A stretch of 64,000 bases of DNA, from assembly GCA_030649895.1 (NCBI GenBank), contig JAUSEX010000052.1:16988-80987 (forward strand). Reading direction: 5' to 3'. Positions 359 through 24,409 of the stretch are shown one piece after another (positions within the stretch are counted from its first letter, which is position 1; each line of letters opens with the position of its first letter). The DNA is from Candidatus Omnitrophota bacterium (GTDB lineage Bacteria > Omnitrophota > Gorgyraeia > Gorgyraeales > Gorgyraeaceae). Both the position numbers and the translations under genes were made by a program. A model generated the notes under the pieces. The model did not search any database. It was given only the letters and a program-made list of their open reading frames with translations, and had not been told where the DNA came from.

Positions 359-484
359 CTTCTCGACTTTGCTCTCTTGGCTTGCTCTCGTGACCGCTCG
401 AAGAATATTAGCAGGGGAACATGCGCTCCTTACAATAATGTTCGAGCGAACATCCTGACTATACATGTAAGCACAGTCGAGAAC
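359..484. repeat. Nested palindromic element, copy A (intergenic). Module order: CTTCTCGAC ... CGCTCGAAGAATATT ... GTTCGAGCG ... GTCGAGAAC.
   Basis: Outer inverted repeat TTCTCGAC/GTCGAGAA and inner inverted repeat CGCTCGAA/TTCGAGCG. The same four modules recur at 853-952, 1395-1503, 1804-1870, 2128-2187 and 18488-18557. Confidence 0.8.
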
Positions 485-486
485 TA

Positions 487-789
487 TTATTTAGTTAATT
501 CTAGCTTCCTGATTCTTGTTTCGTGATCATCTACTCTGTGGCTAGTGTCAAACAAAGCTGTCTTCATAGCGCTAAACTCTAAATCGATTCTGTCAAATCT
601 CAGATCAACTCTATCAAATCTCCTATCGTGTTCCTCCAGCTTTTTAACAATACTTCCATACTGCTCAGCCACTACCCTGATTTCTGAGCGTAGAGCTTCA
701 ACCATTACGCCTGTGTGCCTTTCTAAACGGCTTTCCAGGCGCCTTTCCAGTTCCGCAAAAGATCCGGTTAATTTCTTTTCCATGGCCAT
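487..789 (-). CDS. Hypothetical small coiled-coil protein (~100 aa).
   Basis: ORF MAMEKKLTGSFAELERRLESRLERHTG... with a GGAGG Shine-Dalgarno 8 nt upstream of the ATG at 787-789. Heptad-like charged repeats (RFDRVDLRFDRIDLEF). Confidence 0.5.
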   Translation of the reverse strand: MAMEKKLTGSFAELERRLESRLERHTGVMVEALRSEIRVVAEQYGSIVKKLEEHDRRFDRVDLRFDRIDLEFSAMKTALFDTSHRVDDHETRIRKLELTK

Positions 790-812
790 AATTAGCCTCC
801 TTTCTACTACAC

Positions 813-850
813 TAGACACATCTGGAGGCTATTTTCTTTCAAATATTTTT
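813..850 (-). promoter_or_regulatory. Conserved ~40-nt upstream motif, copy a (plus strand TAGACACATCTGGAGGCTATTTTCTTTCAAATATTTTT). It lies immediately upstream of the RBS of the 487-789 gene.
   Basis: The same motif (TAAGACACATCT-N8-TTTTCTTTCAAAnATTTT) recurs at 3183-3220, 7518-7557, 9753-9791, 11597-11637, 15709-15748 and 21708-21750, always upstream of minus-strand genes. Confidence 0.6.
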
Positions 851-852
851 AT

Positions 853-952
853 CTTCTCGACTGGGCTTGCGTGAATAGCTTGCTTTTTCCGCTCGAAGAA
901 TAATACTGTTCGAGCGGACATTGCGATCCAATCTGAAAGCCTAGTCGAGAAC
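853..952. repeat. Nested palindromic element, copy B (intergenic). It abuts the stop codon of the GT4 gene.
   Basis: CTTCTCGAC(853-861) ... CCGCTCGAAGAATAAT ... GTTCGAGCG(908-916) ... GTCGAGAAC(944-952). Same module order as copy A. Confidence 0.8.
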
Positions 953-2262
953 TATTTAGACAGGATAGTATTATACAACTTCTCAGTATCTTTTATCAAT
1001 CTTTCTTTTGAGAATCGGTTTTTCACGATATTCCTGCCATTTTCGCCAAATTGTCTTCTTTTTTCAGGTTCTCTTATTAAATCCATGAGTTTTCGACCAA
1101 ACTCTTCCACATCCTCTGACTCTACCAGATATCCACTCTTTCCATCCTGCACCATATCCACTACACCGCCTACTTTAGTAGCAACCACAGGCCTTGCGCC
1201 AGCCATAGCTTCAATAAGCGATACCGGCGTCCCCTCATTCAGTGATGTCAAAACCACTATGTCTAACCCCTCATAAATCGCCTTTAAGTCCTTCTCCCAT
1301 CCTCTAAACTCTACTATATCTTTTATGCCCAATTCCCCTGCATATTTTTCTAATTCTTCCCTTAATTCCCCATCGCCTATAATTATAAATTTAACTTCTC
1401 GACTCTGCGCACATGATATGCTTTCATGCCCGCTCGAAGAATATTTGCTACCAATATCGTTCGAGCGGACATGTTGTTTCAGATTGCAAGCACAGTCGAG
1501 AACCATCTTATGATTTTTTATGGGCACAAGCCTGCCAACTATGCCTATATTTACAATGTCAGCATTTTCCTTCGGCGCTAATTTAAATAACTCCTCTAAT
1601 TCAAATCCTAACTCTATCACAGAAATTTTATTCTCTGGCGCTATTCTATATTTTTCTACAAGTTCTTTTTTTAAATTTTCGCTTACTGTAATAATCTTAT
1701 CCGTAAACAGCGCCAGAAATCTCTCCACCCATATAAAAAATAACGTTTTAATTTTCCCGAAATATCCGCTAAACGCATGGCCATGAAATGTATGGACAAT
1801 AACAATACTGTTCGAGCGAGGCCGAATATCTTCTCGACAAGCTCGAAGAATATTCGGCCAAGTAGAGAACCTTATAACTTCACACAACACTCCCGCCATC
1901 CTACCCAACGCTCCAGCCTTCGCCGTATGTGTGTGAATAATATCCGGTTTTTCCTCGCGAATAATCTTATATATTTTACAAAATGCCGTCCAATCATCTT
2001 TCCATGACAATTCTCTGCCAAGTTCTTTTACAATAACCGGCTTAATGCCCTTCTCGGCCGCCAGGTAAATCATGTCGCCTTCGCTCTCAGCCACCTCGCC
2101 ACACACAAGCACAGTTTCATATTTTATCTTCTCGACTTCGCTCGAAGAATATTGTTCGAGCGAGGCCGAAGGCCGAATCGAGAACCCTTCTGTCAACAAT
2201 ACTGCATTCCTCGCCGGCCCGCCAATATTAAGTCTCGCAATAATCCTGACTATTTTAATCAT
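952..2262 (-). CDS. Glycosyltransferase family 4 (GT-B fold) carrying three in-frame insertions of the palindromic element.
   Basis: GT4 hallmarks are present (N-terminal MIKIVRIIARLNIGGPARN; C-terminal GLDIVVLTSLNEGTPVSLIEAMAGARPVVATKVGG EX7E-like region). Three segments encoded by the repeat copies (FSIRPSASLEQYSSSEVEKIKYETVLVCGEVAESEGD; LCEVIRFSTWPNILRACREDIRPRSNSIVIV; DCACNLKQHVRSNDIGSKYSSSGHESISCAQSREVKF) interrupt otherwise conserved GT4 sequence without breaking the frame. Confidence 0.8.
   Translation of the reverse strand: MIKIVRIIARLNIGGPARNAVLLTEGFSIRPSASLEQYSSSEVEKIKYETVLVCGEVAESEGDMIYLAAEKGIKPVIVKELGRELSWKDDWTAFCKIYKIIREEKPDIIHTHTAKAGALGRMAGVLCEVIRFSTWPNILRACREDIRPRSNSIVIVHTFHGHAFSGYFGKIKTLFFIWVERFLALFTDKIITVSENLKKELVEKYRIAPENKISVIELGFELEELFKLAPKENADIVNIGIVGRLVPIKNHKMVLDCACNLKQHVRSNDIGSKYSSSGHESISCAQSREVKFIIIGDGELREELEKYAGELGIKDIVEFRGWEKDLKAIYEGLDIVVLTSLNEGTPVSLIEAMAGARPVVATKVGGVVDMVQDGKSGYLVESEDVEEFGRKLMDLIREPEKRRQFGENGRNIVKNRFSKERLIKDTEKLYNTILSK
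1395..1503. repeat. Nested palindromic element, copy C, inside the GT4 coding sequence and in frame.
   Basis: CTTCTCGAC(1395-1403) ... CCCGCTCGAAGAATATT ... GTTCGAGCG(1459-1467) ... GTCGAGAAC(1495-1503). Confidence 0.8.
1804..1870. repeat. Nested palindromic element, copy D (permuted compact form), inside the GT4 coding sequence and in frame.
   Basis: GTTCGAGCG(1810-1818) aggccgaatat CTTCTCGAC(1830-1838) aa GCTCGAAGAATATTCGGCC(1841-1859) aa GTAGAGAAC. The stem ggccgaatat/atattcggcc is complementary. Confidence 0.75.
2128..2187. repeat. Nested palindromic element, copy E (60-bp compact form), inside the GT4 coding sequence and in frame.
   Basis: CTTCTCGAC ttc GCTCGAAGAATATT GTTCGAGCG aggccgaaggccgaa TCGAGAACC. 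It encodes KYSSSEVEK, the same peptide as the copy in asnB at 18488-18557. Confidence 0.8.
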
Positions 2263-3160: not shown

Positions 3161-3182
3161 ATTTGACTCCTCCTTTGTATAA

Positions 3183-3220
3183 TAGACACATCTGGAGGCT
3201 GTTTTCTTTCAAATATTTTC
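3183..3220 (-). promoter_or_regulatory. Conserved ~40-nt upstream motif, copy b, followed (minus strand) by TATTATAC, an AGGAGG RBS and the ATG of the RhuM fragment.
   Basis: Plus strand TAGACACATCTGGAGGCTGTTTTCTTTCAAATATTTTC. Confidence 0.6.
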
Positions 3221-3239
3221 ATGGCTTTATTATAACTAT

Positions 3240-4040
3240 TTATTTTCTTATTGTCCAGAAGTCTGCTGAAAGGGTTTCGAGGTATTCATACGGCATGATA
3301 AAGTAGCCATCTTTGCCCCATTTAGTTCCCCAGGAATTTCGCACAAGAAATCTCTTTTCTCGCTGGTCATATCCCACTGCCAGAACAGCGTGTCCGCCAA
3401 GGACTTTTTCCTTCTTCCTGGGCATATTAGCCACGCCTGTACGTGCCACTCTCTGCGACTGGAAACTCTCATAAACAGTAAAGCCAAATACAAATGGATA
3501 TCCTTCAGCAAGGCAGGTAAGCATTTCAGGCAGGCTATTTATGCGGTGATAAGATTCTATACAGCGTTTCTTTGCTTCAGCATAGCATTTTTTAGGAGGT
3601 TTTCTGGTAAATCTTTCTATTACATACGGCCACGTCTTTTCCCAGCACGCGCCTTGTTTTCTCAATGTCTTAATGCCGTCTCTTAAAGATGCTCCTGAGT
3701 CATAATCAACTGTATTTTCCAAAACTCTCTCATTATAATAAATAAAAAGCCTGCTTACATCCGTATATCCCAACAACCTTCCCGTTCGGCGATCGGGATT
3801 ATCTTTATCCCGATCGCCGAACGGGAAGGTTATGCCTTTTCTATCCAAATATTCCAAATTTCCAGCCAATGCATTCGCAGTGCAACTCCCAAGCGCCTCC
3901 TGATTTTCCACGATAGAACAAAATTCCCTCAAATCCACCTTTTTCGGCAATCTCACTACAGGCCTTATCGCCTTATATAAATAATCCCTCTGATCCGGCC
4001 TATCTGGCACCCAGCCATAACTTCTTTTCCCCTTAACCAT
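3240..4040 (-). CDS. Papain-like cysteine peptidase, C1 family.
   Basis: Catalytic Cys context QEALGSCTANALAGNLEY; His context GGHAVLAVGYD; Asn/Trp context NSWGTKWGKDGYF. The gene contains a perfect 18-bp-stem hairpin at 3781-3825 that encodes, in frame, PFGDRDKDNPDRRTG. Confidence 0.8.
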   Translation of the reverse strand: MVKGKRSYGWVPDRPDQRDYLYKAIRPVVRLPKKVDLREFCSIVENQEALGSCTANALAGNLEYLDRKGITFPFGDRDKDNPDRRTGRLLGYTDVSRLFIYYNERVLENTVDYDSGASLRDGIKTLRKQGACWEKTWPYVIERFTRKPPKKCYAEAKKRCIESYHRINSLPEMLTCLAEGYPFVFGFTVYESFQSQRVARTGVANMPRKKEKVLGGHAVLAVGYDQREKRFLVRNSWGTKWGKDGYFIMPYEYLETLSADFWTIRK

Positions 4041-4052
4041 CCCTCCCCTCCT

Positions 4053-4568
4053 CTAAACCTGGTCTACTGTGATTTTCTTAATGCCTAAAACATTGCAGAA
4101 ACGCATGACGGTATATAGCGTGACATTTTTCCTGCCTTCTTCTATCCTGGAAACATCCGGCTGTTTCATACCTATGCGATGCGCCAATTGCTTCTGGCTC
4201 AACCCTTTCCGAATCCTCGCTTCTTTAATAAGCGCCCCAAACTTCCGGAAAAAAACCGGCGTGGCGCTTGCAGGTTTTCTGCGGCCTCGTCCATTCACAT
4301 CTACAAGCTGTTCATAGATTGTTTCCCACCAATCCCTAAAATCTGATTGTCGCGCGCGTTTTATCCATTGAGCCCTGATCCTTGGCCATGCGTCTATAAA
4401 CGTATCCTTGGCAATCAAGGAAAATAGCTCCTTTGACTTATCACAGCGCGACAGAAAAATTACCATTTTAACCGGAAATTGCGGATGTTCTGGATTTTTA
4501 AGTATCTTGGCTGTTTCTTTCAGGGCATTTTCACTTATGTCCCAAAAATATTTTGAAATAATCATCAT
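4053..4568 (-). CDS. Hypothetical protein with a C-terminal XRE-family helix-turn-helix. Overlaps the upstream AbiEii-like gene by 4 nt.
   Basis: C-terminal LSQKQLAHRIGMKQPDVSRIEEGRKNVTLYTVMRFCNVLGI is a classic XRE HTH. The N-terminal ~100 aa are of unknown fold. Confidence 0.6.
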   Translation of the reverse strand: MMIISKYFWDISENALKETAKILKNPEHPQFPVKMVIFLSRCDKSKELFSLIAKDTFIDAWPRIRAQWIKRARQSDFRDWWETIYEQLVDVNGRGRRKPASATPVFFRKFGALIKEARIRKGLSQKQLAHRIGMKQPDVSRIEEGRKNVTLYTVMRFCNVLGIKKITVDQV

Positions 4569-5275
4569 CCTATTGCCTCCATGGCTAATTGCTTGACCTC
4601 GTTTTCCAGGTAAATAACCAATTCCTTAGCATTGAATTCAGTATCGTAAATATCCAGCTCCATTAGCGCAAGCTTGAGTTCCTGCCTGGAAAATGTTCGA
4701 TACCAGTGGACTATCCCCTTTTGGAACCGGGGCGAAAGGCTGCGCAGGAATATGTGCAATGGCTGTATTTTTTTTGAAAGTATGTACACGTCAAATACAT
4801 CTCGCGCCTCTTTGCGGCCTTCGCTGACTTGCCTGCCGACCTCATCTGTTATAACTTGAGTGCCGGAAATAGCGGCTATTTTATGCAGGTATAAATCCTC
4901 TGCACTATACACGCGGACACCGTCAATTTTCCGTATTGCCGGGTGAATGCATACAACATCTTCAACAAAATCAATCTTTAATGGCCTATCCGAACCCTTG
5001 ACCGATATAGTATAAAACCGAACGGCCGCCTTATTGCCGGAAACAAATTCTGATTCCAGATGAATTTTCTGATCCAGATGTTTTTCAAAGGCCTCTGTTA
5101 AGGCAGCTATTTCCGGAATAAGGTATTTCCTTGAAAAAAAATCCAGATCCGAGGAAAACCTATGATGCAGATAATACAATTCAAGAGCTGTGCCACCGGC
5201 AAGCGCAAAATCCCCTGTCTCACGCGAAAAGGCCTTCAGAACAAGTTTTTGCGCCTCTCTTAATTTTAAGTTCAT
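4565..5275 (-). CDS. Nucleotidyltransferase, AbiEii/AbiGii (DUF1814) toxin family, number 1. No upstream AbiEi partner.
   Basis: GDFALAGGTALELYYLHHRFSSDLDFF matches the AbiEii motif (GGTAL...Y...R.S.DLDF). Confidence 0.7.
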   Translation of the reverse strand: MNLKLREAQKLVLKAFSRETGDFALAGGTALELYYLHHRFSSDLDFFSRKYLIPEIAALTEAFEKHLDQKIHLESEFVSGNKAAVRFYTISVKGSDRPLKIDFVEDVVCIHPAIRKIDGVRVYSAEDLYLHKIAAISGTQVITDEVGRQVSEGRKEARDVFDVYILSKKIQPLHIFLRSLSPRFQKGIVHWYRTFSRQELKLALMELDIYDTEFNAKELVIYLENEVKQLAMEAIG

Positions 5276-7313: not shown

Positions 7314-7432
7314 ACTTTACAGTATATCATATTTCTAAACTAAAAACAAGCTTATGGTTTAAATTTTATTATTCTTGTATATTGTGGGTTTACTTTTTAA
7401 TATTATTCTAAACATCGTCTCTGTATCTGCCA

Positions 7433-7557
7433 TATCTGTAATATACATCTTACCATCCGTAGCCAGCATTTTTAAACCGTTACATTTTGTAACGGTTTCA
7501 CTACCCTTTCGCTACTATATAAGACACATCTCAAAGGTGTTTTCTTTCAAAAATTTT
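7433..7557. repeat. Composite repeat unit, copy 1: 25-bp perfect palindrome AAACCGTTACATTTTGTAACGGTTT (7474-7498) followed by the conserved 40-nt motif (7518-7557).
   Basis: Near-identical to the unit at 15623-15748. The palindrome also occurs at 11284-11308 with compensatory changes (GTGAC...GTCAC). Confidence 0.8.
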
Positions 7558-7987
7558 AAAATATTTCATTCCTTAAAATCCCGACTACATACCCCACATT
7601 CCTTAATGGATTATCAGTGCGCATTTTGGAGACTTTTTCAACGGCTTTGCGCACATCATTTTCATTGTATTCTTTCATAATCCTTATGAAATTCTCAACC
7701 ACTTTTGGGCTATAGCCTTTATCTATCATGAAGCTAAGCTCTCTGGCCTTCGCGACTTCGTCCTTTCCATAACGCGCCTCTAATCCAAGCCATTTTTTCT
7801 CCATATCTTTTTCTGAATAAAGTATACCCAGAAGATACTCGCTTGGCTCTCTATCCTCATAACCAGCGCCTTTAGCTACTCTGGCTCTTTTTATCTCCAG
7901 AACACCGTATTTTTCAAGCTCTCTCATGCTAGGGGAAATAGTAGTATGATCCACATGAAAATCCTGCGCCAGTAAATTAAGGCTCAC
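7556..7987 (-). CDS. 'Family A' winged-helix / DnaD-like domain protein, copy 1. GTG start; the N-terminus is fused to a remnant of the PLD gene's 5' region.
   Basis: MRELEKYGVLEIKRARVAKGAGYEDREPSEYLLG (wHTH-like) ... IRIMKEYNENDVRKAVEKVSKMRTDNPLRNVGYVVGILRNE (DnaD-domain-like C-terminus). The open frame extends upstream into 7988-8100 without an ATG. Confidence 0.6.
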   Translation of the reverse strand: MSLNLLAQDFHVDHTTISPSMRELEKYGVLEIKRARVAKGAGYEDREPSEYLLGILYSEKDMEKKWLGLEARYGKDEVAKARELSFMIDKGYSPKVVENFIRIMKEYNENDVRKAVEKVSKMRTDNPLRNVGYVVGILRNEIF

Positions 7988-8160
7988 AGACCACCACGGG
8001 CTATCTTTACTAAGAGATTCTTTATAGACATTGATAAAATACGCGAACTTAGCGCTTTGGCTTAGTTTCCTTGACCAGTCATATTCCCAGTAGGCAAAAT
8101 GGAAGGATAAAAAGAAATTTTAGTGAAGAGTGTTTTCAACCTATAAACATCCTATGCTTA
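7988..8160. repeat. Recombination scar. The 5' leader/signal-peptide region of the PLD gene (AATGGAAGGATAAAAAGAAATTTTAGTGAAGAG...) is fused directly to the family A gene. The PLD body has been deleted in this copy.
   Basis: Sequence 8095-8160 matches 12640-12700/12770-12830 and 16670-16740, which flank PLD genes at the other two module copies. Confidence 0.6.
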
Positions 8161-8163
8161 TGA

Positions 8164-8925
8164 TTATCCATTGCCTATTCTTTTCAAGAGCTCATCCGAG
8201 AATTTCTGGATTTCTTCTCTGGTTACCGGCTCACGATAATACAATTCATCCATCTCGTCCCGGAATCTCTCCTGAGATATACGTAAATTTTCGACTATGC
8301 TTTTTTTGTCTAAAGGCCTGAACATTTCTTTCTTTGCCAGCAATGCCAAAGCGTCATCTATATTCAATCCCAATTTTTTCTGTAATATAACCAAATCATA
8401 CGGATCCCTGGGCCTTGCCCTATCGTTAAGCGTGCGTATTTTCTCGGCAAAAATCTCGCTTGTGTCCATAACCGGACAGGAAAGCTTAACCCCGTAATAA
8501 TTCTTGTATTCCATTACTTTTGGCTCAAGCAATACTTTTTGATTAGTGTTTATATCTACCTCGATTGTATCCGGCTGGGCTAATACACCGCGGTATTGCA
8601 CGGAAAACGCTAACCCGAATTTTTTCTCTTCTATATCCTTTAATTTAAATATTTCAAAATCTGAAAATAGACTCTCCACGTCGGATAGCTTTAATTTAGT
8701 CTTCGAAGTAAAATCCAGGTCTTTCGAGAAACGAATCTGGTCCAAATAGCAGTGATAGATGGCTGTCCCGCCTTTAAAGACAAGCGCGTCTTTTAATTCA
8801 GAACCGTAAATAATACTTAAGATTACCGCTAAGAAATAATCCTTTTCAGCATCCTGCAAATTATATTTAAGGCCGCGTTTATTTAAGACCTCTAATCGCG
8901 CCCTATCCAACAAATCTATCTTCAT
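8164..8925 (-). CDS. Nucleotidyltransferase, AbiEii toxin family, number 3.
   Basis: DALVFKGGTAIYHCYLDQIRFSKDLDFTSK motif. Overlaps the upstream AbiEi gene. Confidence 0.8.
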   Translation of the reverse strand: MKIDLLDRARLEVLNKRGLKYNLQDAEKDYFLAVILSIIYGSELKDALVFKGGTAIYHCYLDQIRFSKDLDFTSKTKLKLSDVESLFSDFEIFKLKDIEEKKFGLAFSVQYRGVLAQPDTIEVDINTNQKVLLEPKVMEYKNYYGVKLSCPVMDTSEIFAEKIRTLNDRARPRDPYDLVILQKKLGLNIDDALALLAKKEMFRPLDKKSIVENLRISQERFRDEMDELYYREPVTREEIQKFSDELLKRIGNG

Positions 8926-9676
8926 AATATAACCGCCATTTCGCGTTAAATTTCTTTGAATTAGGCGTAAGTTTACTATAACCTTTGGCTCCTACGGTCT
9001 TGCGCAATTCTTCAGTATCTATTTTTAATATATCTAAAATAAATCCTAATTTTCGTCTGGCCGCCTCAGGAAATTTCCGGGCATAGGTAAACAGCCTCCT
9101 AAAATTTATTCTGTCTTTTGCTTTTTGCAGTTTCTCCAGCAGTAAATCTATGGAATAAGTGTCATTTTTAAAATAGAGATAATCTAGAATCACTTTTTCA
9201 AGCTCCGCGACTTTTACGTAGTAGCCTTCTATGTTTTCAGTCTTAAAGCCAAAATACAGCTTTTTGTTTATCTTCAGATACCGATAGGTGTTTTTTTGAA
9301 ACACGTACTTCTTGGACTTAAGATTGGTTACCGATGATACAGTACGCAACATCTGTTCGAAAAGGCCATAATGATTTAAAGCTGAATCCAGCGAAACATA
9401 AGAATCTTTATTAAAGGCATTCGCTATAATAACAGGCGAAATATTCACAAAGCCGCGCGAGGAGATATCTGAGATAAAATAAAGCCCTCTCCTCAAAGGA
9501 ATGAGCCAGCCGTTTTTTTTGAGCTCATAGACCCGCTTCTTGAGGACAAATTTCGAGTATTTCCTGCCTAATGCCTTATGGATATCGTTGGCAGTTACGA
9601 TCTTACCCGAAGCAACAATAATATCTTCTATATCCACAAGTCGTTTTTCCGTTAAAATAGTATTCTTTGAAACCAC
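8903..9676 (-). CDS. AbiEi-family antitoxin / regulator, number 3 (GTG start).
   Basis: VYELKKNGWLIPLRRGLYFISD is an AbiEi_4 winged-helix signature. AAGGGGG RBS. sigma70-like TTGACA(9730-9735)-N17-TTTAAT(9707-9712) upstream. Confidence 0.7.
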   Translation of the reverse strand: MVSKNTILTEKRLVDIEDIIVASGKIVTANDIHKALGRKYSKFVLKKRVYELKKNGWLIPLRRGLYFISDISSRGFVNISPVIIANAFNKDSYVSLDSALNHYGLFEQMLRTVSSVTNLKSKKYVFQKNTYRYLKINKKLYFGFKTENIEGYYVKVAELEKVILDYLYFKNDTYSIDLLLEKLQKAKDRINFRRLFTYARKFPEAARRKLGFILDILKIDTEELRKTVGAKGYSKLTPNSKKFNAKWRLYYEDRFVG

Positions 9677-9706
9677 TTATACACCCCCTTTACGTATCTA
9701 TCTAGA

Positions 9707-9791
9707 ATTAAACCATACAAATATACTTTTGTCAAGTAGCTTTCTTGCATATATAAGACACATCTCAAAGGTGTTTTCTTTCAAAAATTTT
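9707..9791 (-). promoter_or_regulatory. Promoter of AbiEi#3 (TTGACA-N17-TTTAAT), with the conserved 40-nt motif (9753-9791) just upstream of the -35 element.
   Basis: Minus strand: ...TTGAAAGAAAACACCTTTGAGATGTGTCTTATATATGCAAGAAAGCTACTTGACAAAAGTATATTTGTATGGTTTAATTC... Confidence 0.6.
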
Positions 9792-9866
9792 AGTTAAATA
9801 TAACTAATTTATGTAACACCTTTATTTGTAATTAATTGCAACTACTACTTAAAAGTCAATAAGCAG

Positions 9867-10703
9867 CTAATTCAAGAGTTTTTTGCTTTGAGTCTCCTTT
9901 AGATAATTTTCATGCGTTAATACTTTTTTACCGCTCTTTCTTTCCAATTCTTTTCTCGCATTGCCTGCGACAGCGCCGCCCTCTTGGGCCGCTTGCTTAT
10001 TCTCGATAAATCCCTGAGCATTTTTATTTATGGTGATTTCTTTAGTGGATGCCTCTCCAAGCATTGAGAAGATTAATTCCAAGTCATTCATATGATCCCG
10101 CAGATTTTGCCGCTTTAACCCTTTAAACTTTTTATACGCGGATGGAGTCAGGCCAAAAATTGCTTTTGATATCTCAGCGGTTAGGATTTCATATTCTTTG
10201 GGTTTCTTTACGTCTCTTTTTTGCCACTGATCAGTTAGCTCTTCACGTATAGCTATGCCGCGTATTCTCTTTTCTATCCAATCATCACTATAGCCTTTTG
10301 CCTTATATAGTGCCCGCGTTCTCTTTGTCGCCAATTCAGGGTCTTCGATTTCCTTAATCCGCTCATAGCCGACTCTTGCCAGCCACCTCTTAAATGGTTC
10401 AGCTTTAGGCGAAGGGACAGATTGAATAATACGGAATATACCTTCGGTGTTGGCGCAATCTGTTTCATACTTTTTACCATCCAATGCTTCCAATTTCAGT
10501 CCGTGACAAAATGTCACGACCTCGCATCCTTCCGCTGTCAATCTTTGTTTGAGCTTTCTCCAATATGAACCTGCATCTAAGCTCTCGGTAAGAACACCGC
10601 ATACATCCACAACCGAAAACCACCATTCATTCTTGTGAATGGTTTTCCTGATCTCTTTTTTCCGAAAAATAGCAATTTTAGTAACAGCTGTCTCTTTTGT
10701 CAT
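9867..10703 (-). CDS. DinD-like DNA-damage-inducible protein with an N-terminal Bro-N/KilA-N-like domain, copy 1.
   Basis: The N-terminus IAIFRKKEIRKTIHKNEWWFSVVDVCGVLT resembles Bro-N. The C-terminal half (LTDQWQKRDV...YKKFKGLKRQNLRDHMNDLELIFSMLGEASTKEITINKNAQGF...GGAVAGNARKELE) aligns with E. coli DinD (KGLKKNQKILDHMGSTELAANLFRATQTEE...GRKVRQTIQELGG). Confidence 0.7.
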   Translation of the reverse strand: MTKETAVTKIAIFRKKEIRKTIHKNEWWFSVVDVCGVLTESLDAGSYWRKLKQRLTAEGCEVVTFCHGLKLEALDGKKYETDCANTEGIFRIIQSVPSPKAEPFKRWLARVGYERIKEIEDPELATKRTRALYKAKGYSDDWIEKRIRGIAIREELTDQWQKRDVKKPKEYEILTAEISKAIFGLTPSAYKKFKGLKRQNLRDHMNDLELIFSMLGEASTKEITINKNAQGFIENKQAAQEGGAVAGNARKELERKSGKKVLTHENYLKETQSKKLLN

Positions 10704-10747
10704 TTATCCCTCCAGATTTTTAATTACTATATATAAATCTACCCACT

Positions 10748-10847
10748 TCTAACTTAAAAGTCAATAGGCGCTATCCGAATGTGCCTATTGGGCATGCCTT
10801 AAAATCCCCACTAAATATTCAATATTTCTTAACAAAAGTCTCGTTCA
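10748..10847. repeat. Hairpin repeat CAATAGGCgctatccgaatgtGCCTATTG plus a 3' remnant of a family A gene (...TTAAAATCCCCACTAAATAT...).
   Basis: Same element as 5350-5410 (there carrying the nested mini-hairpin) and 25990-26035. The downstream ~40 nt match the last codons of the family A genes. Confidence 0.55.
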
Positions 10848-11485
10848 TTATCTTAGTAGTTTTTTATCATGGGGTAGCTTTATATAACTGTCTTTAGTTA
10901 TAACCTTTTTGCCTGTCTTCGACTCAATTTCTTTTCTCGCTTTCCCCGCAACATGCCCGCCCTGTCGTGCCACCTTTCGATTTTCCCTGAACGTCTTTGG
11001 TTCTTTTGCATTTGAAATTTCAGCAGTGCTGGCCTCCGCAAGCATATTCAAAACAAGCTCCAAATTCGTCATGTTATCGCGCAAATTTTCCTTTTTAAGT
11101 TCTTTAAACTTTTTATATTGCTTGGTCGTTAGGCCTGCCCAGGCAAATGTAATTTCATCAGTCAAAATAGCAAAGTCACCGGCCTCTTTAACGCCGCGCT
11201 TCTGCCATTCATCAGTTAAAGCCTTACGAAGCTCAATGCTTTTTCTGTAACACGCATCTTGCCATCCGCAGCCAGCATTTTCAAACCGTGACATTTTGTC
11301 ACGGTTTCACTGCCTTCTTTTTTAAGGCGTTCTTTTAGCTTTCTCCAATACGCAAGAGGAGATACGCTATCAGTAAGCACTGATATTATATCCGCTACTA
11401 CAAAAAACCATTTTTCTGTCTTTTCGTCCCAACTACGCCTGATTTTCTTACCTTCGAATAGAGCTATCTGAGATTTTTTCTCCAT
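10848..11485 (-). pseudogene. DinD-like gene, copy 2. It is disrupted: split into two ORFs (11216-11485 N-terminal part, 10848-11294 C-terminal part) by a repeat insertion together with a ~70-aa deletion.
   Basis: N-part MEKKSQIALFEGKKIRRSWDEKTEKWFFVVADIISVLT...TKCHGLKMLAADGK and C-part ...LTDEWQKRGVKEAGDFAILTDEI...YKKFKELKKENLRDNMTNLELVLNMLAEAST both align with DinD copies 1 and 3. The segment between them (CANTEGIFRIIQS...IEKRIRG) is missing and replaced by the palindromic element at 11250-11320. Confidence 0.7.
11250..11320. repeat. Inserted copy of the 25-bp palindrome element (AAACCGTGACATTTTGTCACGGTTT at 11284-11308) with flanking CATCTTGCCATCCGCAGCCAGCATTTTC. It disrupts DinD copy 2.
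   Basis: Matches 7440-7500 and 15640-15700, except for two compensatory substitutions that keep the palindrome perfect. Confidence 0.75.
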
Positions 11486-11596
11486 TTATCCCTCCAAATT
11501 TTCATTACAAAGATTTCTATATTAAACACTTTTATTATACCACGCTTTTCAATTCTTCTCTAAGAAACTGCATCATGCGCCACCTCCTCTCTACCC

Positions 11597-11637
11597 TATA
11601 AGACACATCTGGAGGTAGTTTTCTTTCAACTATTTTT
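11597..11637 (-). promoter_or_regulatory. Conserved 40-nt motif, copy e, upstream of the DinD#2 start.
   Basis: TATAAGACACATCTGGAGGTAGTTTTCTTTCAACTATTTTT. Confidence 0.55.
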
Positions 11638-11686
11638 ACTTTTTTGATTTTTTGTGAAAAAGGCAGGTAAAACCAGATTACAAATA

Positions 11687-12061
11687 TTAATCCCTTGCTT
11701 CTTTCCTTAAAATCCCCACTAAATATCCGATATTCCTTAAAGGATTATCCGGACGCATGGAGGAGACTTTTTTGACTGCATTAGCTACATTTTTCTCACC
11801 ATACTCTCGTATAATCCTTATAAGGTTTTCTACTGCTTTGGGATTATAGCCCCTATCTATCATGAAGCTAAACTCTCTTGCCTTGGCCGCTAAGTCTTTT
11901 CCATAACGCTCTTCCATGCCGCGCCATTTTTCCTCCATGTCTTTTTCTGAATAAAGTATACCCAAAAGATACTCGCTTGGCTCTCTATTCTCATAATCAG
12001 CGCCTTTAGCTATCCTAGTTCTTTTTATCTCCAGGACGCCGTATTTCTCAAGCTCTCTCAT
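11687..12061 (-). CDS. 'Family A' winged-helix / DnaD-like domain protein, copy 2 (124 aa).
   Basis: MRELEKYGVLEIKRTRIAKGADYENREPSEYLL...NPLRNIGYLVGILRKEARD. Paralog of 7556-7987 and 15722-16153. Confidence 0.6.
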   Translation of the reverse strand: MRELEKYGVLEIKRTRIAKGADYENREPSEYLLGILYSEKDMEEKWRGMEERYGKDLAAKAREFSFMIDRGYNPKAVENLIRIIREYGEKNVANAVKKVSSMRPDNPLRNIGYLVGILRKEARD

Positions 12062-12252
12062 GCCAGGGGAATTAAAGCCAATGATTTATCCTTTAAGAAC
12101 CTGGCAGGGCATTTGATCATTACAATCTGCGCTTCATCTATAGATCTCTTATCCACAAAAGGCCGTAACTTAAGAATATTCTTTAATTTTTCCTTAGCAT
12201 ACTCTCTGGATATTATTAAATCCGCATTCTCGCTATTTAACCTGAATGCTGA

Positions 12253-12687
12253 CTATGACCAGTTAGAGCTTCCTGATATTACAATATTTTTATCAATGAC
12301 TATTAATTTATCATGAAGCCTTTTACCAGGCATAATAAATTTAACCGGCACGCCCTCTCTATAAAGCGCTAAAAAGGCAGAATCGTTCTTATCTTCATTA
12401 TAGGGTTTACTCCTATCTAAATAGACCTCTACTTTTACACCTCTAGTATGCGCGTTTACTATATCCTGAACCAGCTTATACGCTTCGCTTTCTGTCTTAT
12501 CCAACTCCATGGATATCTCATACATCGCTATATAAAGAGAGTCCTTTGATTTGGAAAGCGCTTCGTGGGCGGCCTGGAAATATTTATCATCGCTTATGTC
12601 TTTAATATCTACCTGAATCGCGAAACTTTTGATTGGAAATAATAAAAATGGAAGGATGAAAATGAAGCCCACCCAGGTTAAAGCCAT
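12253..12687 (-). pseudogene. Secreted PLD-superfamily (Nuc-like, HKD) nuclease, truncated by a nonsense codon immediately after the HKD motif.
   Basis: Signal peptide MALTWVGFIFILPFLLFPIKSFA|IQ; HKD motif HDKLIVIDKNIVISGSSNWS. The TAG directly after NWS corresponds to TAT (Tyr) in the paralog at 16150-16566, whose frame continues ...YSAFRLNSENADLII... for 60 more codons. Confidence 0.6.
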
Positions 12688-12824
12688 GGGTTCTTGTGGG
12701 CGGAATACTGAGCGGCCTGAACATATTCGCACCCTAAAGGGCGTGGTTTTAGGCCGCGAATGTAGAAATTTTAGGGAAGAGTATTTCAATCTATAAACAT
12801 CCTATCAGGCCTATCCGGCACCCC

Positions 12825-13985
12825 TTATAACACATTGCCTGCCCATAGTTCAGACAAAAAATCTCTCCAAGGTATAATCTGTATTTTACCGCTAACCCTT
12901 TTTTCCTTTTCATTACACACAAGCACAGCTTTTTTTGGAGAATATTCCTCAATAAATGCCTTCAATGATTTCAAATCCCTGCCATCAATCCTGCTCGAAC
13001 CTTTTACTTCTATAGCCACTTCTCCCTTTCCAAGCACAAAATCCACCTCCAGCCCTGATTTGGTCCTCCAAAAATTAATATCAAAATCCGACTCGCTGTA
13101 AGAACGGTAGGCGTTTATCTCCATAAGGATTAAATGTTCGAATGCCTTGCCAAACTCTTCTCCCTTAATATCCTCTAAATGCCGCTTAGTCAATATCCCG
13201 CTGACTCCGACATCGAACAAATAATATTTCGGAGCGCTTATAATAACATTACGGCTTTGCCTTCTTTTAAAAGGCTCCAGCCTTATCGCCAATAACGTAT
13301 CCACCAGTATCTGATAATACTCCCTTACGGTCTTCGCGTTTACCCCGCAGTCCCTGGCAATATTTGAATAATTCGTCAACTCTCCGTGCGAATATCCAAT
13401 AGCGTCAAAAAACCTGGAAAACGCCGGAATATTGCGGACGAGCCCTTCGTTGAAGACCTCTTCCTTTAAATAATCCTGAACATATGCTATTAAAGATTTT
13501 CTGTAATTTTTATCATCCAGATAATGCGAAGGCACCATTCCATGGTTTAATGCTCTCAAGAGGTCTACATTCTTAAGCTCAGCGCTTACGAACGGAAAAA
13601 GCTGGTAACGCCATGCCCTGCCCCCCAGTAAATTAGCATGGCCTCTCTTTAACTTCCTGGCGCTCGAACCGCATAATATAAAACTTAAGCCCTTATTTTC
13701 TATCAGCCAGTGAATCTCATCTAGGATTTGAGGAATTTTTTGAACCTCATCTAATATTATAGGCTTAGTTAGACTTTTTTCTTCTTTCGCGAGCAGTCTT
13801 TCGCGGAATAAGGAAGGATTTTTGGATAGCTCAAAAAATAGATCAGTCTTCAGAAAATCATAATATAGACTGTCAGGAAAATGCTCCTTGAGATAGCTGG
13901 TTTTTCCGGTCTTTCTGGGCCCCCATAAAAACGCGGATTGGCCTTTGGGCAGTTTTATTTTTAAAAGCCTTTTTATGTTTTCCAT
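12825..13985 (-). CDS. AAA+ ATPase (AAA_14-like) with a C-terminal DUF4143 / PD-(D/E)xK-like domain, copy 1.
   Basis: Walker A GPRKTGKTS; Walker B ILDEVQ; CGSSARKL; C-terminal ...EVDFVL...IEVK (D..E.K nuclease-like). Confidence 0.8.
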   Translation of the reverse strand: MENIKRLLKIKLPKGQSAFLWGPRKTGKTSYLKEHFPDSLYYDFLKTDLFFELSKNPSLFRERLLAKEEKSLTKPIILDEVQKIPQILDEIHWLIENKGLSFILCGSSARKLKRGHANLLGGRAWRYQLFPFVSAELKNVDLLRALNHGMVPSHYLDDKNYRKSLIAYVQDYLKEEVFNEGLVRNIPAFSRFFDAIGYSHGELTNYSNIARDCGVNAKTVREYYQILVDTLLAIRLEPFKRRQSRNVIISAPKYYLFDVGVSGILTKRHLEDIKGEEFGKAFEHLILMEINAYRSYSESDFDINFWRTKSGLEVDFVLGKGEVAIEVKGSSRIDGRDLKSLKAFIEEYSPKKAVLVCNEKEKRVSGKIQIIPWRDFLSELWAGNVL

Positions 13986-13996
13986 ATAGAACCTTA

Positions 13997-14050
13997 CTCC
14001 TAATTAGTTCGACTAGTTAGGAGTATATCACACAAACTATAAGCTGTCAA
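13997..14050 (-). promoter_or_regulatory. Promoter of AAA#1: TTGACA(14045-14050)-N17-TATACT(14022-14027), followed by an imperfect palindrome CTCCTAATTAGT-tcg-ACTAGTTAGGAG (13997-14023) that overlaps the RBS.
   Basis: Minus strand: cTTGACAgcttatagtttgtgtgaTATACTcctaactagtcgaactaattaggagtaaggttctatATG. Confidence 0.65.
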
Positions 14051-14082
14051 GCGCCTCCTGATTTTTCACATGATCAAAACTC

Positions 14083-15351
14083 TCATCCCAACAACCACTT
14101 ATAAATAGGCTTAACCATTATAACCTTCCCTTCTAACGCAATCTCTTCCTCGGTATCTTCAGTCAAAATAAGCGCAGTTTTCAACTTAAGTTCATCCATG
14201 GCTTTTATCAGCGCATTGAGCTCTCTCGATCTCGTTTTTTCGTTATCTAAATTATCCGCAACCTGAATAAGCAATAGATCATTTTTGCCAGACTTGACCA
14301 AGAAATCAACTTCCAGATTATTTGTGGTCTTATAATAATAAATCTCTTGGAACTTGCGCCTAAGCTCAAGGAATACCAAGTTTTCTAAAAACTTTCCCTT
14401 ATTCTTGGAAAATTGGAATGCGACCGCTTCTGCCAAACCATTGTCGATACAGTAAATCTTCTTAAAGGAGACAAACTGCTGTTTGAGAGAATAAGAAAAC
14501 CTGCTGATGAGGAATATCAAGTAGCTGTTTTCCAAGAAATCCGCGTAGCTCTTGATGGTATTCATGCTGCCTACTCCAAGAACTTTTTTCAGATTATTAT
14601 AAGAGAATGTCCCTCCGAGATTACTCAAAAGATACAGCCCAAGCTCCCTCAATGGTTTAACCTGCTTGATACCATATCTTGCCACGATGTCCCGGTAAAG
14701 AATGTCTTCATATACCCGCTTCAAAAGGGTTGTATCTTGATACTTCAAATACTCGGGCATGCCTCCATGCTTGAGATATTCAGCAAAATGCTTCTTGATA
14801 GCAGCTCTAACTGAGGTCAAAGACAGGCTGTCCTTGGATAACTGGAAACCCTTGAAAGAGAGAAATTCCATAAAAGAGAACGGGAACAATTCAATGTTAA
14901 CGTTTCTGCCTGTCAGTTTCGCGCCAAGCTCCTTGCTAAGCAATGAGGCATTCGAACCTGTGATAAAAAATTTGCATCCCTTACCTTGCATCCGACGCAC
15001 AAACACTTCCCATTGGGGAACGTTCTGAACCTCATCGAAAAAGAAAACCTTTTTATCTCCATACAACTCCAGAAACACCTCGTAAAGATGATTGAAATCC
15101 TCAACATTGAAGTCCACAAGGCGTTCATCTTCAAAATTAAGATAATAAACACCTTTCTTGTAAAGATTACTGATAATCTGATTGAGCAATGTAGACTTGC
15201 CAGAACGGCGCACTCCTGAAACAACTACCGCATGGGGTAAAGTTGCATGCCGTGAAGCAACACTCAATGCTGCCCTTGGAATACCAATATCTATATCCTG
15301 ACGATCTTTTTCTTGTTCAAGAACGATTTCTTTTAATAATGACTTATGCAT
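14083..15351 (-). CDS. AAA+ ATPase (AAA_14-like) with a C-terminal DUF4143 / PD-(D/E)xK-like domain, copy 2.
   Basis: Walker A GVRRSGKST; Walker B FFDEVQ; ITGSNASLL; C-terminal ...EVDFLV...IQV. Confidence 0.8.
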   Translation of the reverse strand: MHKSLLKEIVLEQEKDRQDIDIGIPRAALSVASRHATLPHAVVVSGVRRSGKSTLLNQIISNLYKKGVYYLNFEDERLVDFNVEDFNHLYEVFLELYGDKKVFFFDEVQNVPQWEVFVRRMQGKGCKFFITGSNASLLSKELGAKLTGRNVNIELFPFSFMEFLSFKGFQLSKDSLSLTSVRAAIKKHFAEYLKHGGMPEYLKYQDTTLLKRVYEDILYRDIVARYGIKQVKPLRELGLYLLSNLGGTFSYNNLKKVLGVGSMNTIKSYADFLENSYLIFLISRFSYSLKQQFVSFKKIYCIDNGLAEAVAFQFSKNKGKFLENLVFLELRRKFQEIYYYKTTNNLEVDFLVKSGKNDLLLIQVADNLDNEKTRSRELNALIKAMDELKLKTALILTEDTEEEIALEGKVIMVKPIYKWLLG

Positions 15352-15366
15352 CCTGTCTCCTTATGT

Positions 15367-15416
15367 TCTCACTGTTAATGAGAGTATATCATATATAGTT
15401 CTCATTGTCAATGAGA
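15367..15416 (-). promoter_or_regulatory. Promoter of AAA#2: TTGACA(15406-15411)-N17-TATACT(15383-15388), flanked by two 17-bp palindromic operators TCTCATTGTCAATGAGA (15400-15416, containing the -35) and TCTCACTGTTAATGAGA (15367-15383, at the transcription start).
   Basis: Minus strand: tctcaTTGACAatgagaactatatatgaTATACTctcattaacagtgagaacatAAGGAGAcaggATG. Confidence 0.7.
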
Positions 15417-15622
15417 ATAAGGATCTAAGTTCTTCAAAAATTCTGCAGCCTCTCTCATGAAATCCTCTATTAAGACCTACTGTATTGCTTTCAGCAATTC
15501 CAGATCGTTTAACATCCGATTCAGGCATCTGCACAGAAAGGGTGGTGGCAATTTGCCTCCACCCTTTAGCCAACTACGAATCCCTTTCTATATTATCACT
15601 CAATTCTCTATTAACAATAGCC

Positions 15623-15748
15623 ATATCTGTAATATGCATCTTGCCATCCGCAGCCAGCATTTTCAAACCGTTACATTTTGTAACGGTTTCACTACCCTCT
15701 CGCTACTATATAAGACACATCTCAAAGGTGTTTTCTTTCAAAAATTTT
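15623..15748. repeat. Composite repeat unit, copy 2: 25-bp palindrome (15665-15689) plus the conserved 40-nt motif (15709-15748).
   Basis: About 95% identical to 7433-7557. Confidence 0.8.
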
Positions 15749-16153
15749 AAAAATAAATAAACCGCGCAGGTGATTCATTAGTCTTTTGCTTCTTTCTTCA
15801 AAATCCCCACTAAATATCCGGATATTCCTTAAAGGATTATCCGGACGCATGGAGGAGACTTTTTCAACGGCTTTGCGCACGTCATTTTCATTGTATTCTT
15901 TCATAATCCTTATGAAATTCTCAACCACCTTTGGGCTATAGCCTTTGTCTATCATAAAGCTGAATTCCCGGGCTTTGGCTACCGTGTCCTTACCGTAAAG
16001 CTTTTCCATGCCAAGCCATTTTTTCTCCATATCTTTTTCTGAATAAAGTATACCCAGAAGATACTCGCTTGGCTCTCTATTCTCATGACCAACGCCTTTG
16101 GCTATCCTAGCTCTTTTTATCTCCAGGACGCCATATTTTTCAAGCTCTCTCAT
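15722..16153 (-). CDS. 'Family A' winged-helix / DnaD-like protein, copy 3. The C-terminus is altered by a +1 frameshift (extra G in ATCCGGATATT), so it reads through into the repeat unit.
   Basis: Identical to the other copies up to RPDNPLRNI, then diverges (RIFSGDFEERSKRL...) instead of GYLVGILRKE. The DNA still encodes the ancestral ending in the -1 frame. Confidence 0.55.
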   Translation of the reverse strand: MRELEKYGVLEIKRARIAKGVGHENREPSEYLLGILYSEKDMEKKWLGMEKLYGKDTVAKAREFSFMIDKGYSPKVVENFIRIMKEYNENDVRKAVEKVSSMRPDNPLRNIRIFSGDFEERSKRLMNHLRGLFIFKIFERKHL

Positions 16154-16566
16154 GCCAGGGAAATTGGAGCCAATGATTTATCCTTTAAGAACCTGGCAGG
16201 GCATTTTATCGTTACAATCTGCGCTTCATCTATAGATCTCTTATCCACAAAAGGCCTAAGCCTTAGGATATTCTTTAATTTTTCCTTGGCATACTCTCTG
16301 GATATTATTAAATCAGCATTCTCGCTATTTAACCTGAATGCTGAATATGACCAGTTAGAGCTTCCTGATATTACAATAAATTTAACCGGCACGCCCTCTC
16401 TATAAAGCGCTAAAAAAGCTGAATCGTTCTTATCTTCATTATAGGGTTTACTCCTATCCAAATAGACCTCTATATTTACGCCTCTAGTATGCGCATCTAT
16501 TATATCCTGAACCAGCTTATACGCTTCGCTTTCAGTTTTATCCAGCTCCATAGATATCTCATACAT
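16150..16566 (-). pseudogene. PLD/Nuc-like nuclease paralog lacking the ATG and signal-peptide start region and carrying a 48-nt in-frame deletion that removes the catalytic HKD His-Lys segment.
   Basis: ...VKFIVISGSSNWSYSAFRLNSENADLIISREYAKEKL... The segment MPGKRLHDKLIVIDKN present at 12290-12337 is absent; the deletion is flanked by an ACAATA direct repeat. The upstream frame has no ATG and hits TAG. Confidence 0.6.
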
Positions 16567-16723
16567 CGCTATATAAATAGAGTCCTTTGATTTGGAAAGC
16601 GCTTCGTGGGCGGCTTGGAAATATTTGTCATCGCTTATATCTTGGATATCTACTTGGACTGCGAAACTTTTGATTGGAAATAATAAAAATGGAAGGATAA
16701 AAAAAATTTTAGGGAAAAGTATT

Positions 16724-21608: not shown

Positions 21609-21707
21609 GGCAAACTCTTTCTATGTATGGCTAATATACAAGCATATAGTATAACAATATTGGCTATAATACAAGGTATATTATGTGGAACCGATAGCTT
21701 CCTTTTA

Positions 21708-21750
21708 TATATAGACACATCTTAAGGGTGGTTTCTTTCAATTTTTTTTA
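21708..21750 (-). promoter_or_regulatory. Conserved 40-nt motif, copy g, about 100 nt upstream of AAA#4.
   Basis: TATATAGACACATCTTAAGGGTGGTTTCTTTCAATTTTTTTTA. Confidence 0.55.
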
Positions 21751-23486: not shown

Positions 23487-23518
23487 GCAGTAGCCCAGGT
23501 TTAAACCTGGGCTACTGC
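23487..23518 (-). terminator. Rho-independent terminator hairpin immediately 3' of DinD#3 (GCAGTAGCCCAGG-tttaaa-CCTGGGCTACTGC followed by TTTTAAG on the minus strand).
   Basis: 13-bp perfect stem, 6-nt loop, U-tract. A variant with covarying stem is at 24410-24441. Confidence 0.65.
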
Positions 23519-24351: not shown

Positions 24352-24409
24352 TTATCCCTCCAGATTTTTAATTACCATATATAAATCTACCCGCTTTTAA
24401 CTTATAAAA

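Follow-up and report, generated by a model that had tools for sequence, protein, structure and literature searches.

In-frame palindromic repeats in an Omnitrophota genome are probably orphan members of a structured repeat family associated with a small GIY-YIG nuclease

Rickettsia palindromic elements (RPEs), reportedly described by Ogata et al. in 2000, are said to be palindromes of approximately 100 bp that lie in frame within intact, often essential genes. To our knowledge, the mobilization of RPEs has been unexplained since 2000. Elements with the same behavior were analyzed here in a 64-kb stretch of DNA from a Candidatus Omnitrophota bacterium (contig JAUSEX010000052.1 of assembly GCA_030649895.1, positions 16,988–80,987 of the forward strand), referred to below as the window. 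Six copies of a nested palindrome, named the E/K repeat after its two conserved boxes, lie within or near the genes for a family 4 glycosyltransferase (GT4) and an asparagine synthase (AsnB#1). The analysis indicates that the six copies are probably gene-less ("orphan") members of a structured DNA repeat family, the repeats of which flank the gene of their cognate partner, a small single-domain GIY-YIG nuclease.

Among described systems, the nearest comparison is with the Ssn proteins (cd10448; ~94 aa), small single-domain GIY-YIG proteins that are strand-specific single-stranded-DNA nucleases (Chenal et al., Nat Commun 2025, PMC11893778). Ssn proteins cleave beside hairpin repeats, known as NTS or as Ssn-related motifs (SRM), which flank ssn genes and occur in hundreds of copies (PMC11893778). 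The insertion sequence (IS)-like layout NTS-ssnA-NTS, and its similarity to repetitive extragenic palindromes (REP) with their REP-associated tyrosine transposase (RAYT), was remarked on by Chenal et al. (PMC11893778). The SRM-rich genomes include Rickettsia and Wolbachia; only 2% of the NTS were genic, and neither Omnitrophota nor the Candidate Phyla Radiation (CPR) is mentioned in that study (PMC11893778). The published degenerate SRM motif is HGTCWYN(0-2)YYVSBRHN(0-5)WNVSBRGN(0-2)RNCYNB (PMC11893778). A literature search on the repeat sequence, on Omnitrophota palindromes, and on GIY-YIG proteins with REP, MITEs (miniature inverted-repeat transposable elements), or RPEs returned nothing apart from this paper.

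A preceding sequence-only reading of the window had described six nested palindromes built from four modules. All six copies were confirmed, at 359–484, 853–952, 1395–1503, 1804–1870, 2128–2187, and 18488–18556, and their orientation is identical. The modules are indeed over-represented: CGCTCGAAGAATATT (up to two mismatches) was matched 12 times in the window against 0.25 expected, GTTCGAGCG 7 times against 0.15, CTTCTCGAC 6 times against 0.21, and GTCGAGAAC (up to one mismatch) 15 times against 5.1, counts that were reached by none of 100 shuffled sequences. The modules are, however, not independent. Modules 1 and 4 are exact reverse complements, and modules 2 and 3 depart from reverse complementarity at a single base. 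Thus, one unit and its inverted counterpart make up the element, and modules 1/4 and 2/3 represent the ends of that unit.

The unit, approximately 25–55 nt in length, consists of S-TTCTCGAC (box E), a spacer, and CGCTCGAA-S'-AATATT (box K), and the K box can also be written (C)GCTCGAA-S'-AATATT. The spacer is either a 2–3-nt linker or a sequence-diverse hairpin, and spacers of 10–24 nt had a mean fold energy of -4.4 kcal/mol compared with -1.0 kcal/mol for shuffled sequences. The two units of a doublet were always non-identical, with C...G at S/S' in one unit and G...C in its partner, and the arrangement Ec-Kg-Kc'-Eg' was seen 65 times. When the S/S' pairs were counted in loci not selected on S, 66 were G..C, 64 C..G, 7 A..T, and 7 other combinations, so that 95% were Watson–Crick pairs. 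This covariation supports an intra-unit 4-bp stem, S-TTC/GAA-S', by which the unit would close when single-stranded. The S/S' pair also gives the hairpin repeat its orientation, as it tells apart unit types and strands. The asymmetric two-unit build with its covarying pair had been missed by the sequence-only reading, as had the cross-phylum spread and the link to a GIY-YIG gene described below.

Besides forming doublets, units also stand alone, pair tail to tail, repeat in tandem, or nest one inside another. Tandem arrays of units or half-units with periods of approximately 27, 50, and 60 nt were found in four loci (L017, 1–290; L091, 1–354; L001, 4580–4880; L067, 2440–2603), a pattern indicative of slippage or recombination at these boxes. 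Among other motif classes considered, a tyrosine-recombinase core site (9-6-9 around AATATT), a LexA/Cheo box, an attC site, and a K-turn were dropped, as the spacing was variable and the consensus did not fit.

The partner gene was identified in two repeat-bearing loci, where a 90-aa open reading frame (ORF) lies exactly between E' and E. Its product is a single-domain GIY-YIG protein (PF01541; E value, 1e-17 to 1e-18). A metagenome scan anchored on this protein, and not on the repeat, returned 187 relatives, and 80 loci were kept. The E box (TTCTCGAC, up to one mismatch) was located within 40 nt after the nuclease stop codon in 66 of the 80 loci, often at 0–5 nt, and E' (GTCGAGAA) within 40 nt before the nuclease ATG in 52; both sides were occupied in 43. 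By comparison, the motif was present in only 6.6% of random 48-nt segments from the same loci. The start region and the stop codon of the nuclease gene overlap the units, often at a distance of 0–8 nt, and variant nuclease loci carried variant units, either of the TTCTCCAC/GTGGAGAA type or of the CCTTCGACAAGCTCAGG type. Annotated homologs of the nuclease come from Omnitrophota, from Gottesman-, Curtiss-, and Komeilibacteria, and from "Patescibacteria," which is the same range as that of the repeat.

Three further findings connect the nuclease with the Omnitrophota copies. The order doublet, GIY-YIG gene, doublet was found within polysaccharide gene clusters of two Omnitrophota contigs (L202 and L205), and the genome of L205 is also the source of repeat locus L110, so that repeat and nuclease are present in one Omnitrophota genome. 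In L131/L135, the unit directly upstream of the GIY-YIG gene has a 27-nt spacer approximately 86% identical (by eye) to the A-unit spacer of copy 3 in the window. In L170, the architecture of copy 6 was found downstream of a GIY-YIG gene.

A different repeat, 'GGGCTTCGAC-NN-GCTCAG...GAACGG', flanks other small GIY-YIG genes in L199 (a Sphingomonas plasmid), L019, L168, and L196. It is widespread and is the source of the common 'FDKLR/LSLSKG' peptides. The core TCGAC-NN-GCTC is common to this repeat and to the E/K unit, which suggests a larger superfamily of nuclease-linked repeats.

The bracketing of a gene by its own repeats also bears on the idea that the family is a REP, a bacterial interspersed mosaic element (BIME), or a REP doublet (REPIN) mobilized by a RAYT (HUH Y1) transposase. 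In keeping with this idea, the E/K elements are short palindromic units organized into inverted doublets, mosaic clusters, and tandem arrays. We nevertheless regard this origin as highly improbable, because the bracketed gene encodes a GIY-YIG nuclease and not a Y1 transposase, no RAYT-like cluster was found among the neighboring genes, and the GTAG-type 5' tetranucleotide is not present when the sequence is read directly. In the reading favored here, the E/K repeat and its nuclease would be functionally comparable to REP/REPIN with a RAYT transposase.

The distribution of the repeat was determined with an exact 23-base pattern and one genome per species. More than 112 repeat loci were obtained among the matches listed, mostly from Omnitrophota metagenome-assembled genomes (MAGs) with many loci per genome. 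Other repeat-bearing bins belonged to CPR phyla, "Gammaproteobacteria," Planctomycetia, and Actinomycetota, and the G + C content of the loci ranged from 0.32 to 0.64. The unit pattern had no match among the 2.9 million viral contigs of IMG/VR, which gives no support to a phage vector. ORFs of 150 codons or more contained approximately 16% of the units deep in their interior, with both orientations and several frames represented, and 22 of 185 element clusters lay deep within ORFs of 250 codons or more. With respect to the host ORF, orientation was split 32 against 23, without strong bias. The hosts included TatD, HisRS, GatB, MurE, LeuRS, AroA (two copies), and a GT9 enzyme.

Within the window, copies 3, 4, and 5 are contained in the intact GT4 gene (952–2262, minus strand; 436 aa), the ORF of which is open through all three. 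The encoded protein is 100% identical to an NCBI protein of a Candidatus Omnitrophota MAG. Close GT4 orthologs measured 367–470 aa and insert-free ones 367–376 aa, and P0011, P0024, P0030, P0037, and P0046 are orthologs without any of the three segments. Insertion sizes were determined by DNA alignment to two syntenic contigs, L113 and L114, which carry the GT4 gene, a small coiled-coil gene, and the epimerase gene. At site 1, copy 5 (2128–2187, residues ~28–48) is an exact 60-bp insertion relative to L113. Copy 4 (1804–1870, residues ~128–151), at site 2, is an exact 69-bp insertion relative to both L113 and L114. At site 3, occupied by copy 3 (1395–1503, residues ~254–290), the B-unit half is common to L113 and L114, and the A-unit half forms an extra 54 bp in the window. 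The insert lengths are all multiples of 3 bp. The earlier claim of three copies that leave the GT4 frame unbroken is thus borne out by these exact 60-, 69-, and 54-bp differences.

Copy 6 (18488–18556) lies in frame near the N-terminus of AsnB#1 (16724–18667, minus strand; 647 aa), between the GPDNEGI and GLGHRRL motifs, and this ORF is likewise intact and open through the copy. The second asparagine synthase of the window, AsnB#2, had been proposed as an internal control: approximately 19 aa at copy 6 are without counterpart in AsnB#2 and, by structure alignment, in Escherichia coli AsnB (PDB 1CT9). In the AlphaFold model of GT4 (mean pLDDT, i.e., predicted local distance difference test score, 77.9), values below 50 were obtained only at residues 26–46, 135–141, 143–150, and 268–286. 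All of these segments fall within the three inserts, and the remaining GT-B fold is confident. The inserted peptides are therefore predicted by the model to occupy surface loops and to leave the fold intact. Together with the insertions in TatD, HisRS, GatB, MurE, LeuRS, AroA, and GT9, these results uphold the view that the palindrome is tolerated in the manner of RPEs, in frame within intact genes and missing from their orthologs.

The same three GT4 loops hold unrelated palindromic inserts in other alleles (P0003, P0004, P0006, P0046, P0054; L115, L117, L118), such as CCCTCTCCCCAGAGGGGAGAGGG ('LTLSPEGRGD'), a GGTTGCGGCTGCC...GGTAGCCGCAGGC hairpin, and hairpins coding for 'GGF.TRPY'. These loops accordingly appear to be general sinks for several repeat families.

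The structure of the individual copies is as follows. Copy 1 (359–484) is a long intergenic doublet that separates the stop of the coiled-coil gene from the start of the epimerase gene. Its A unit (359–409) comprises E at 359–367, the spacer, and K at 395–409; a loop follows, and then the inverted B unit (434–484), with K' at 434–448 and E' at 476–484. Copies 2 (853–952) and 3 are also long doublets, and copy 2 is intergenic and lies upstream of the coiled-coil gene's promoter-like motif. Copy 5 is a compact doublet with the layout E, TT, K, K', a GGCC-GAA-GGCC hairpin, and E'. These four canonical copies fold as nested hairpins, with z scores of -2.8 to -5.9 over the two strands (-3.0 for copy 1 and -5.9 for copy 2). 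Copies 4 and 6 are nested, or "permuted"; each consists of one B unit with a compact A unit inside its hairpin loop, the B unit of copy 4 being on the minus strand and its A unit at 1830–1854. The two permuted copies form alternative hairpins (z -1.8 to -4.0). All six copies are listed here on the plus strand.

The compact and permuted variants had been taken as a sign of ongoing rearrangement. This could not be sustained, because the nested architecture recurs in L064, L092, and L170, the first two from other phyla, and is conserved, the nested GT4 copy being 88–94% identical across alleles. Doublets had a mean of 3.6 stop-free frames out of 6 compared with 1.8 in shuffled sequences, and all six frames were open in the compact window copies.

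Copies 1 and 2 bracket the coiled-coil gene (487–819, minus strand) in the same orientation, as previously noted, and both are missing from L113 and L114, where the gene and its promoter-like motif are kept without the repeats. The stop codon of the coiled-coil gene adjoins copy 1, and copy 2 adjoins the GT4 stop codon, reading TAG-TTCTCGAC on the minus strand. More generally, the stop codon of the upstream gene is often supplied by the B-unit end in this form: for GT4 at 952–954, for the coiled-coil gene at 487–489, and, in 15 of the 80 loci (L119–L198), for the nuclease gene with a distance of 0. The GT4 C-terminus is shorter than that of repeat-free alleles.

Strong folding raises the question of whether the element acts at the RNA level, as a ribozyme, mini-intron, or processing signal that is removed from or acts in the mRNA, so that the extra peptides would never be made. 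The circular-permutation-like variants do recall small ribozymes. Exact multiples of three and stop-free frames would, however, be unneeded if the element were excised; the genic copies lie in both orientations and several frames, many copies are intergenic, and Rfam gave no match at the gathering threshold in the whole window, while 300–2300 at E ≤ 10 yielded matches at chance level only (E ≥ 1.4). An RNA element is therefore extremely improbable as an explanation.

Comparison of GT4 alleles demonstrated that the inserts are better conserved than the gene that contains them. When the window was compared with three other alleles, nucleotide identity was 88–94% in the site-2 insert, 76–80% in the gene core that these alleles share, and only 56–63% at third codon positions. 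For L114, identity was 98% in the site-1 insert and 78% in the gene core. The alleles are mosaics, and the presence of inserts is incongruent with allele similarity; for example, L113 and L114 are the closest GT4 pair (84%), yet they are unlike at site 1. This pattern fits repeated gain at one site, spread by recombination, or homogenization by gene conversion, and it does not fit the passive decay of an old insertion.

The conservation of orthologous copies beyond that of the host gene is unexpected for a purely selfish, decaying insert and is an argument for the main rival explanation, in which the repeats are maintained by the host for a function of their own, such as control of recombination or transformation or a role as structural or regulatory hairpins, and the nuclease gene was domesticated or is a selfish gene that homes into the unit junction; the nuclease would then not mobilize the repeats. 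In Neisseria, control of recombination or transformation has been proposed as the role of NTS, which are found around surface genes (PMC11893778), and the E/K copies likewise cluster in polysaccharide and cell-surface gene clusters, both in the window and in L202/L205. Gene-less tail-to-tail unit pairs, which are common, would be the "empty" nuclease site. On the other side, insertions in essential enzymes and a polymorphism incongruent with allele relatedness look selfish, the overlap of the nuclease start and stop with the units (often 0–8 nt) suggests co-evolution as one cassette, and variant nuclease loci carry variant units. On balance, host maintenance is considered unlikely.

If the six copies are orphan members of the nuclease-associated family, the following course may be proposed. 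The nuclease would recognize the folded single-stranded unit and nick beside it, by analogy with SsnA and Neisseria NTS and with REP/RAYT. Such nicks would then lead to repair, copy-insertion, or gene conversion, by which the repeats could both spread and stay homogeneous, again as inferred from the analogous systems. Survival inside genes is restricted to a length that is a multiple of three, a stop-free frame, and a site in a predicted surface loop, and the outcome is RPE-like extra peptide loops in GT4 and AsnB.

Several points weigh against this proposal. Cleavage, excision, and insertion by the nuclease are put forward by analogy, and a nuclease alone leaves integration unexplained. The tight association could alternatively reflect homing of the nuclease gene into pre-existing repeats. 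No GIY-YIG gene was detected in the 64-kb window by tblastn. The published SRM motif had no match in the window, with a regular expression that was validated on NTS sequences, and in related loci the 13 SRM matches fell on canonical NTS-like repeats and none on E/K units. The nuclease resembles a rhizobial 96-aa GIY-YIG protein (hhalign probability, 98.4%; 40% identity) to about the same degree as it does UPF0213 proteins, which are its best PDB matches (1zg2; E value, 3e-16), and its membership in the Ssn clade (cd10448) is unproven; a Sphingomonas GIY-YIG protein scored 99.1%, and no NCBIfam model matched the nuclease. The taxonomic labels of the repeat loci come from MAG bins. Lastly, no target-site duplication or fixed target was consistent among 67 doublets, the flanks of which are AT-rich, often with TA or TAG beside the B end.

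This last result counts equally against an ordinary MITE, that is, a deletion derivative of an IS with a DDE transposase whose terminal inverted repeats would be the outer arms. Perfect 8–9-bp terminal inverted repeats, a size of 45–137 bp, AT-rich flanks, and a possible 4-bp duplication, AACT, at one copy (359–484) are in keeping with a MITE. All-against-all clustering of neighboring ORFs of at least 100 aa, a cut-off that lies above the 90-aa nuclease, found no recurrent transposase in the 112 repeat-bearing loci and grouped housekeeping families only, and two large arm-bounded intervals (L070 and L098) hold ordinary genes. Single units, tail-to-tail pairs, and nested units are also unfit for an element defined by terminal inverted repeats. 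A MITE origin is thus very unlikely.

A wider proposal is that the E/K units and the nuclease form a mobile pair of autonomous and non-autonomous elements that is driven by a nuclease only, spreads by single-strand hairpin nicking with repair or gene conversion, and not by classical transposition, across phyla (Omnitrophota, CPR, Proteobacteria, and Planctomycetes), and represents a general engine of in-frame palindromic insertions, possibly including RPEs. We offer this as a tentative and rather doubtful extension. The narrower association with the nuclease already provides a testable candidate driver for in-frame selfish palindromes, until now a Rickettsia curiosity without a known driver, and it extends this behavior to Omnitrophota and CPR, including aminoacyl-tRNA synthetases and Mur ligases. 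The nuclease and a unit of approximately 25 nt with a covarying closing pair would constitute a defined enzyme–substrate pair, a tie that rests on genomic context. Frequent in-frame residence in essential genes and cross-phylum spread are the notable features of the family. For annotation, the findings carry a warning that many length-variable protein "loops" in these phyla are repeat insertions.

Other features of the window were also recorded. A promoter-like motif of approximately 45 nt, reading TTGAAAGAAAAYAGCCTCCAGATGTGTCTAKTATA on the minus strand, was located upstream of many minus-strand genes, at 808–852, 3178–3222, 7516–7569, 9750–9803, 11595–11648, 15707–15760, and 21707–21760, and is conserved upstream of the coiled-coil gene in L113 and L114. 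Paralogous cassettes with a period of approximately 4.1 kb occupy 7429–16743 in three copies of 79–96% identity. Repeats that are 93–95% identical lie approximately 13.6 kb apart (9866–10165 and 23517–23816; 10617–10759 and 24265–24407). The genes beside GT4 (2259–2841, 3240–4040, and 4565–5275) encode a PemK/MazF-like toxin accompanied by a small antitoxin ORF, a peptidase of the papain family (C1), and an AbiEii-like nucleotidyltransferase, the families being assigned by eye from the translations. The adjacency of the C1 peptidase and GT4 is kept in L114, L115, L117, and L118, where the neighbors have Pfam Peptidase_C1 matches.

The E/K repeat shares with the Ssn/NTS system a single-domain GIY-YIG gene of approximately 90 aa bracketed by its own oriented hairpin repeat, as well as gene-less repeats that are dispersed across phyla and conserved in sequence over large phylogenetic distances. 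E/K units differ from Ssn/SRM repeats in sequence and grammar: they place a variable hairpin between two conserved boxes, show covariation at the closing pair, and occur as fixed A/B doublets and in nested form, and approximately 10–16% of the E/K copies are deep inside ORFs, compared with 2% of NTS in genes. Because the SRM motif is unmatched and the nuclease clade is unassigned, the E/K family is filed as Ssn/SRM-like by architecture and not as a proven member; if correctly placed, it would extend the concept of Ssn-type repeats to a class of motifs not captured by the published search pattern. Repeats almost identical to Neisseria NTS (TGTCATTCCCGCGAAAGCGGGAATCC) were also seen in Omnitrophota/CPR and metagenome loci (L091, L092, L032, L070, L161, and L166), and canonical Ssn-type repeats thus coexist there with the E/K family.

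REP, BIME, and REPIN families resemble the E/K repeat as short imperfect palindromes that form inverted doublets and mosaics and flank a single-copy nuclease-type gene, and single-strand hairpin recognition has been proposed for them, as it is here. They differ in that the partner is an HUH Y1 transposase and not a GIY-YIG nuclease, and REPs are extragenic and species-specific, whereas some E/K repeats are genic and the family crosses phyla. MITEs of bacteria, for example the Correia elements of Neisseria, are likewise small and non-autonomous, bounded by terminal inverted repeats and polymorphic for insertion between strains; in contrast to them, the E/K repeat lacks a parent IS and any fixed target duplication, TA or otherwise, and it follows a modular grammar of single, inverted, and nested units.

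In its behavior, the E/K repeat matches RPEs. Both are in-frame palindromes in intact genes, add surface-loop peptides, and are without a transposase. The E/K repeat differs from RPEs in that its hosts are Omnitrophota, CPR, and others, its orthologous copies are highly conserved and not decaying, and it has a candidate partner nuclease.

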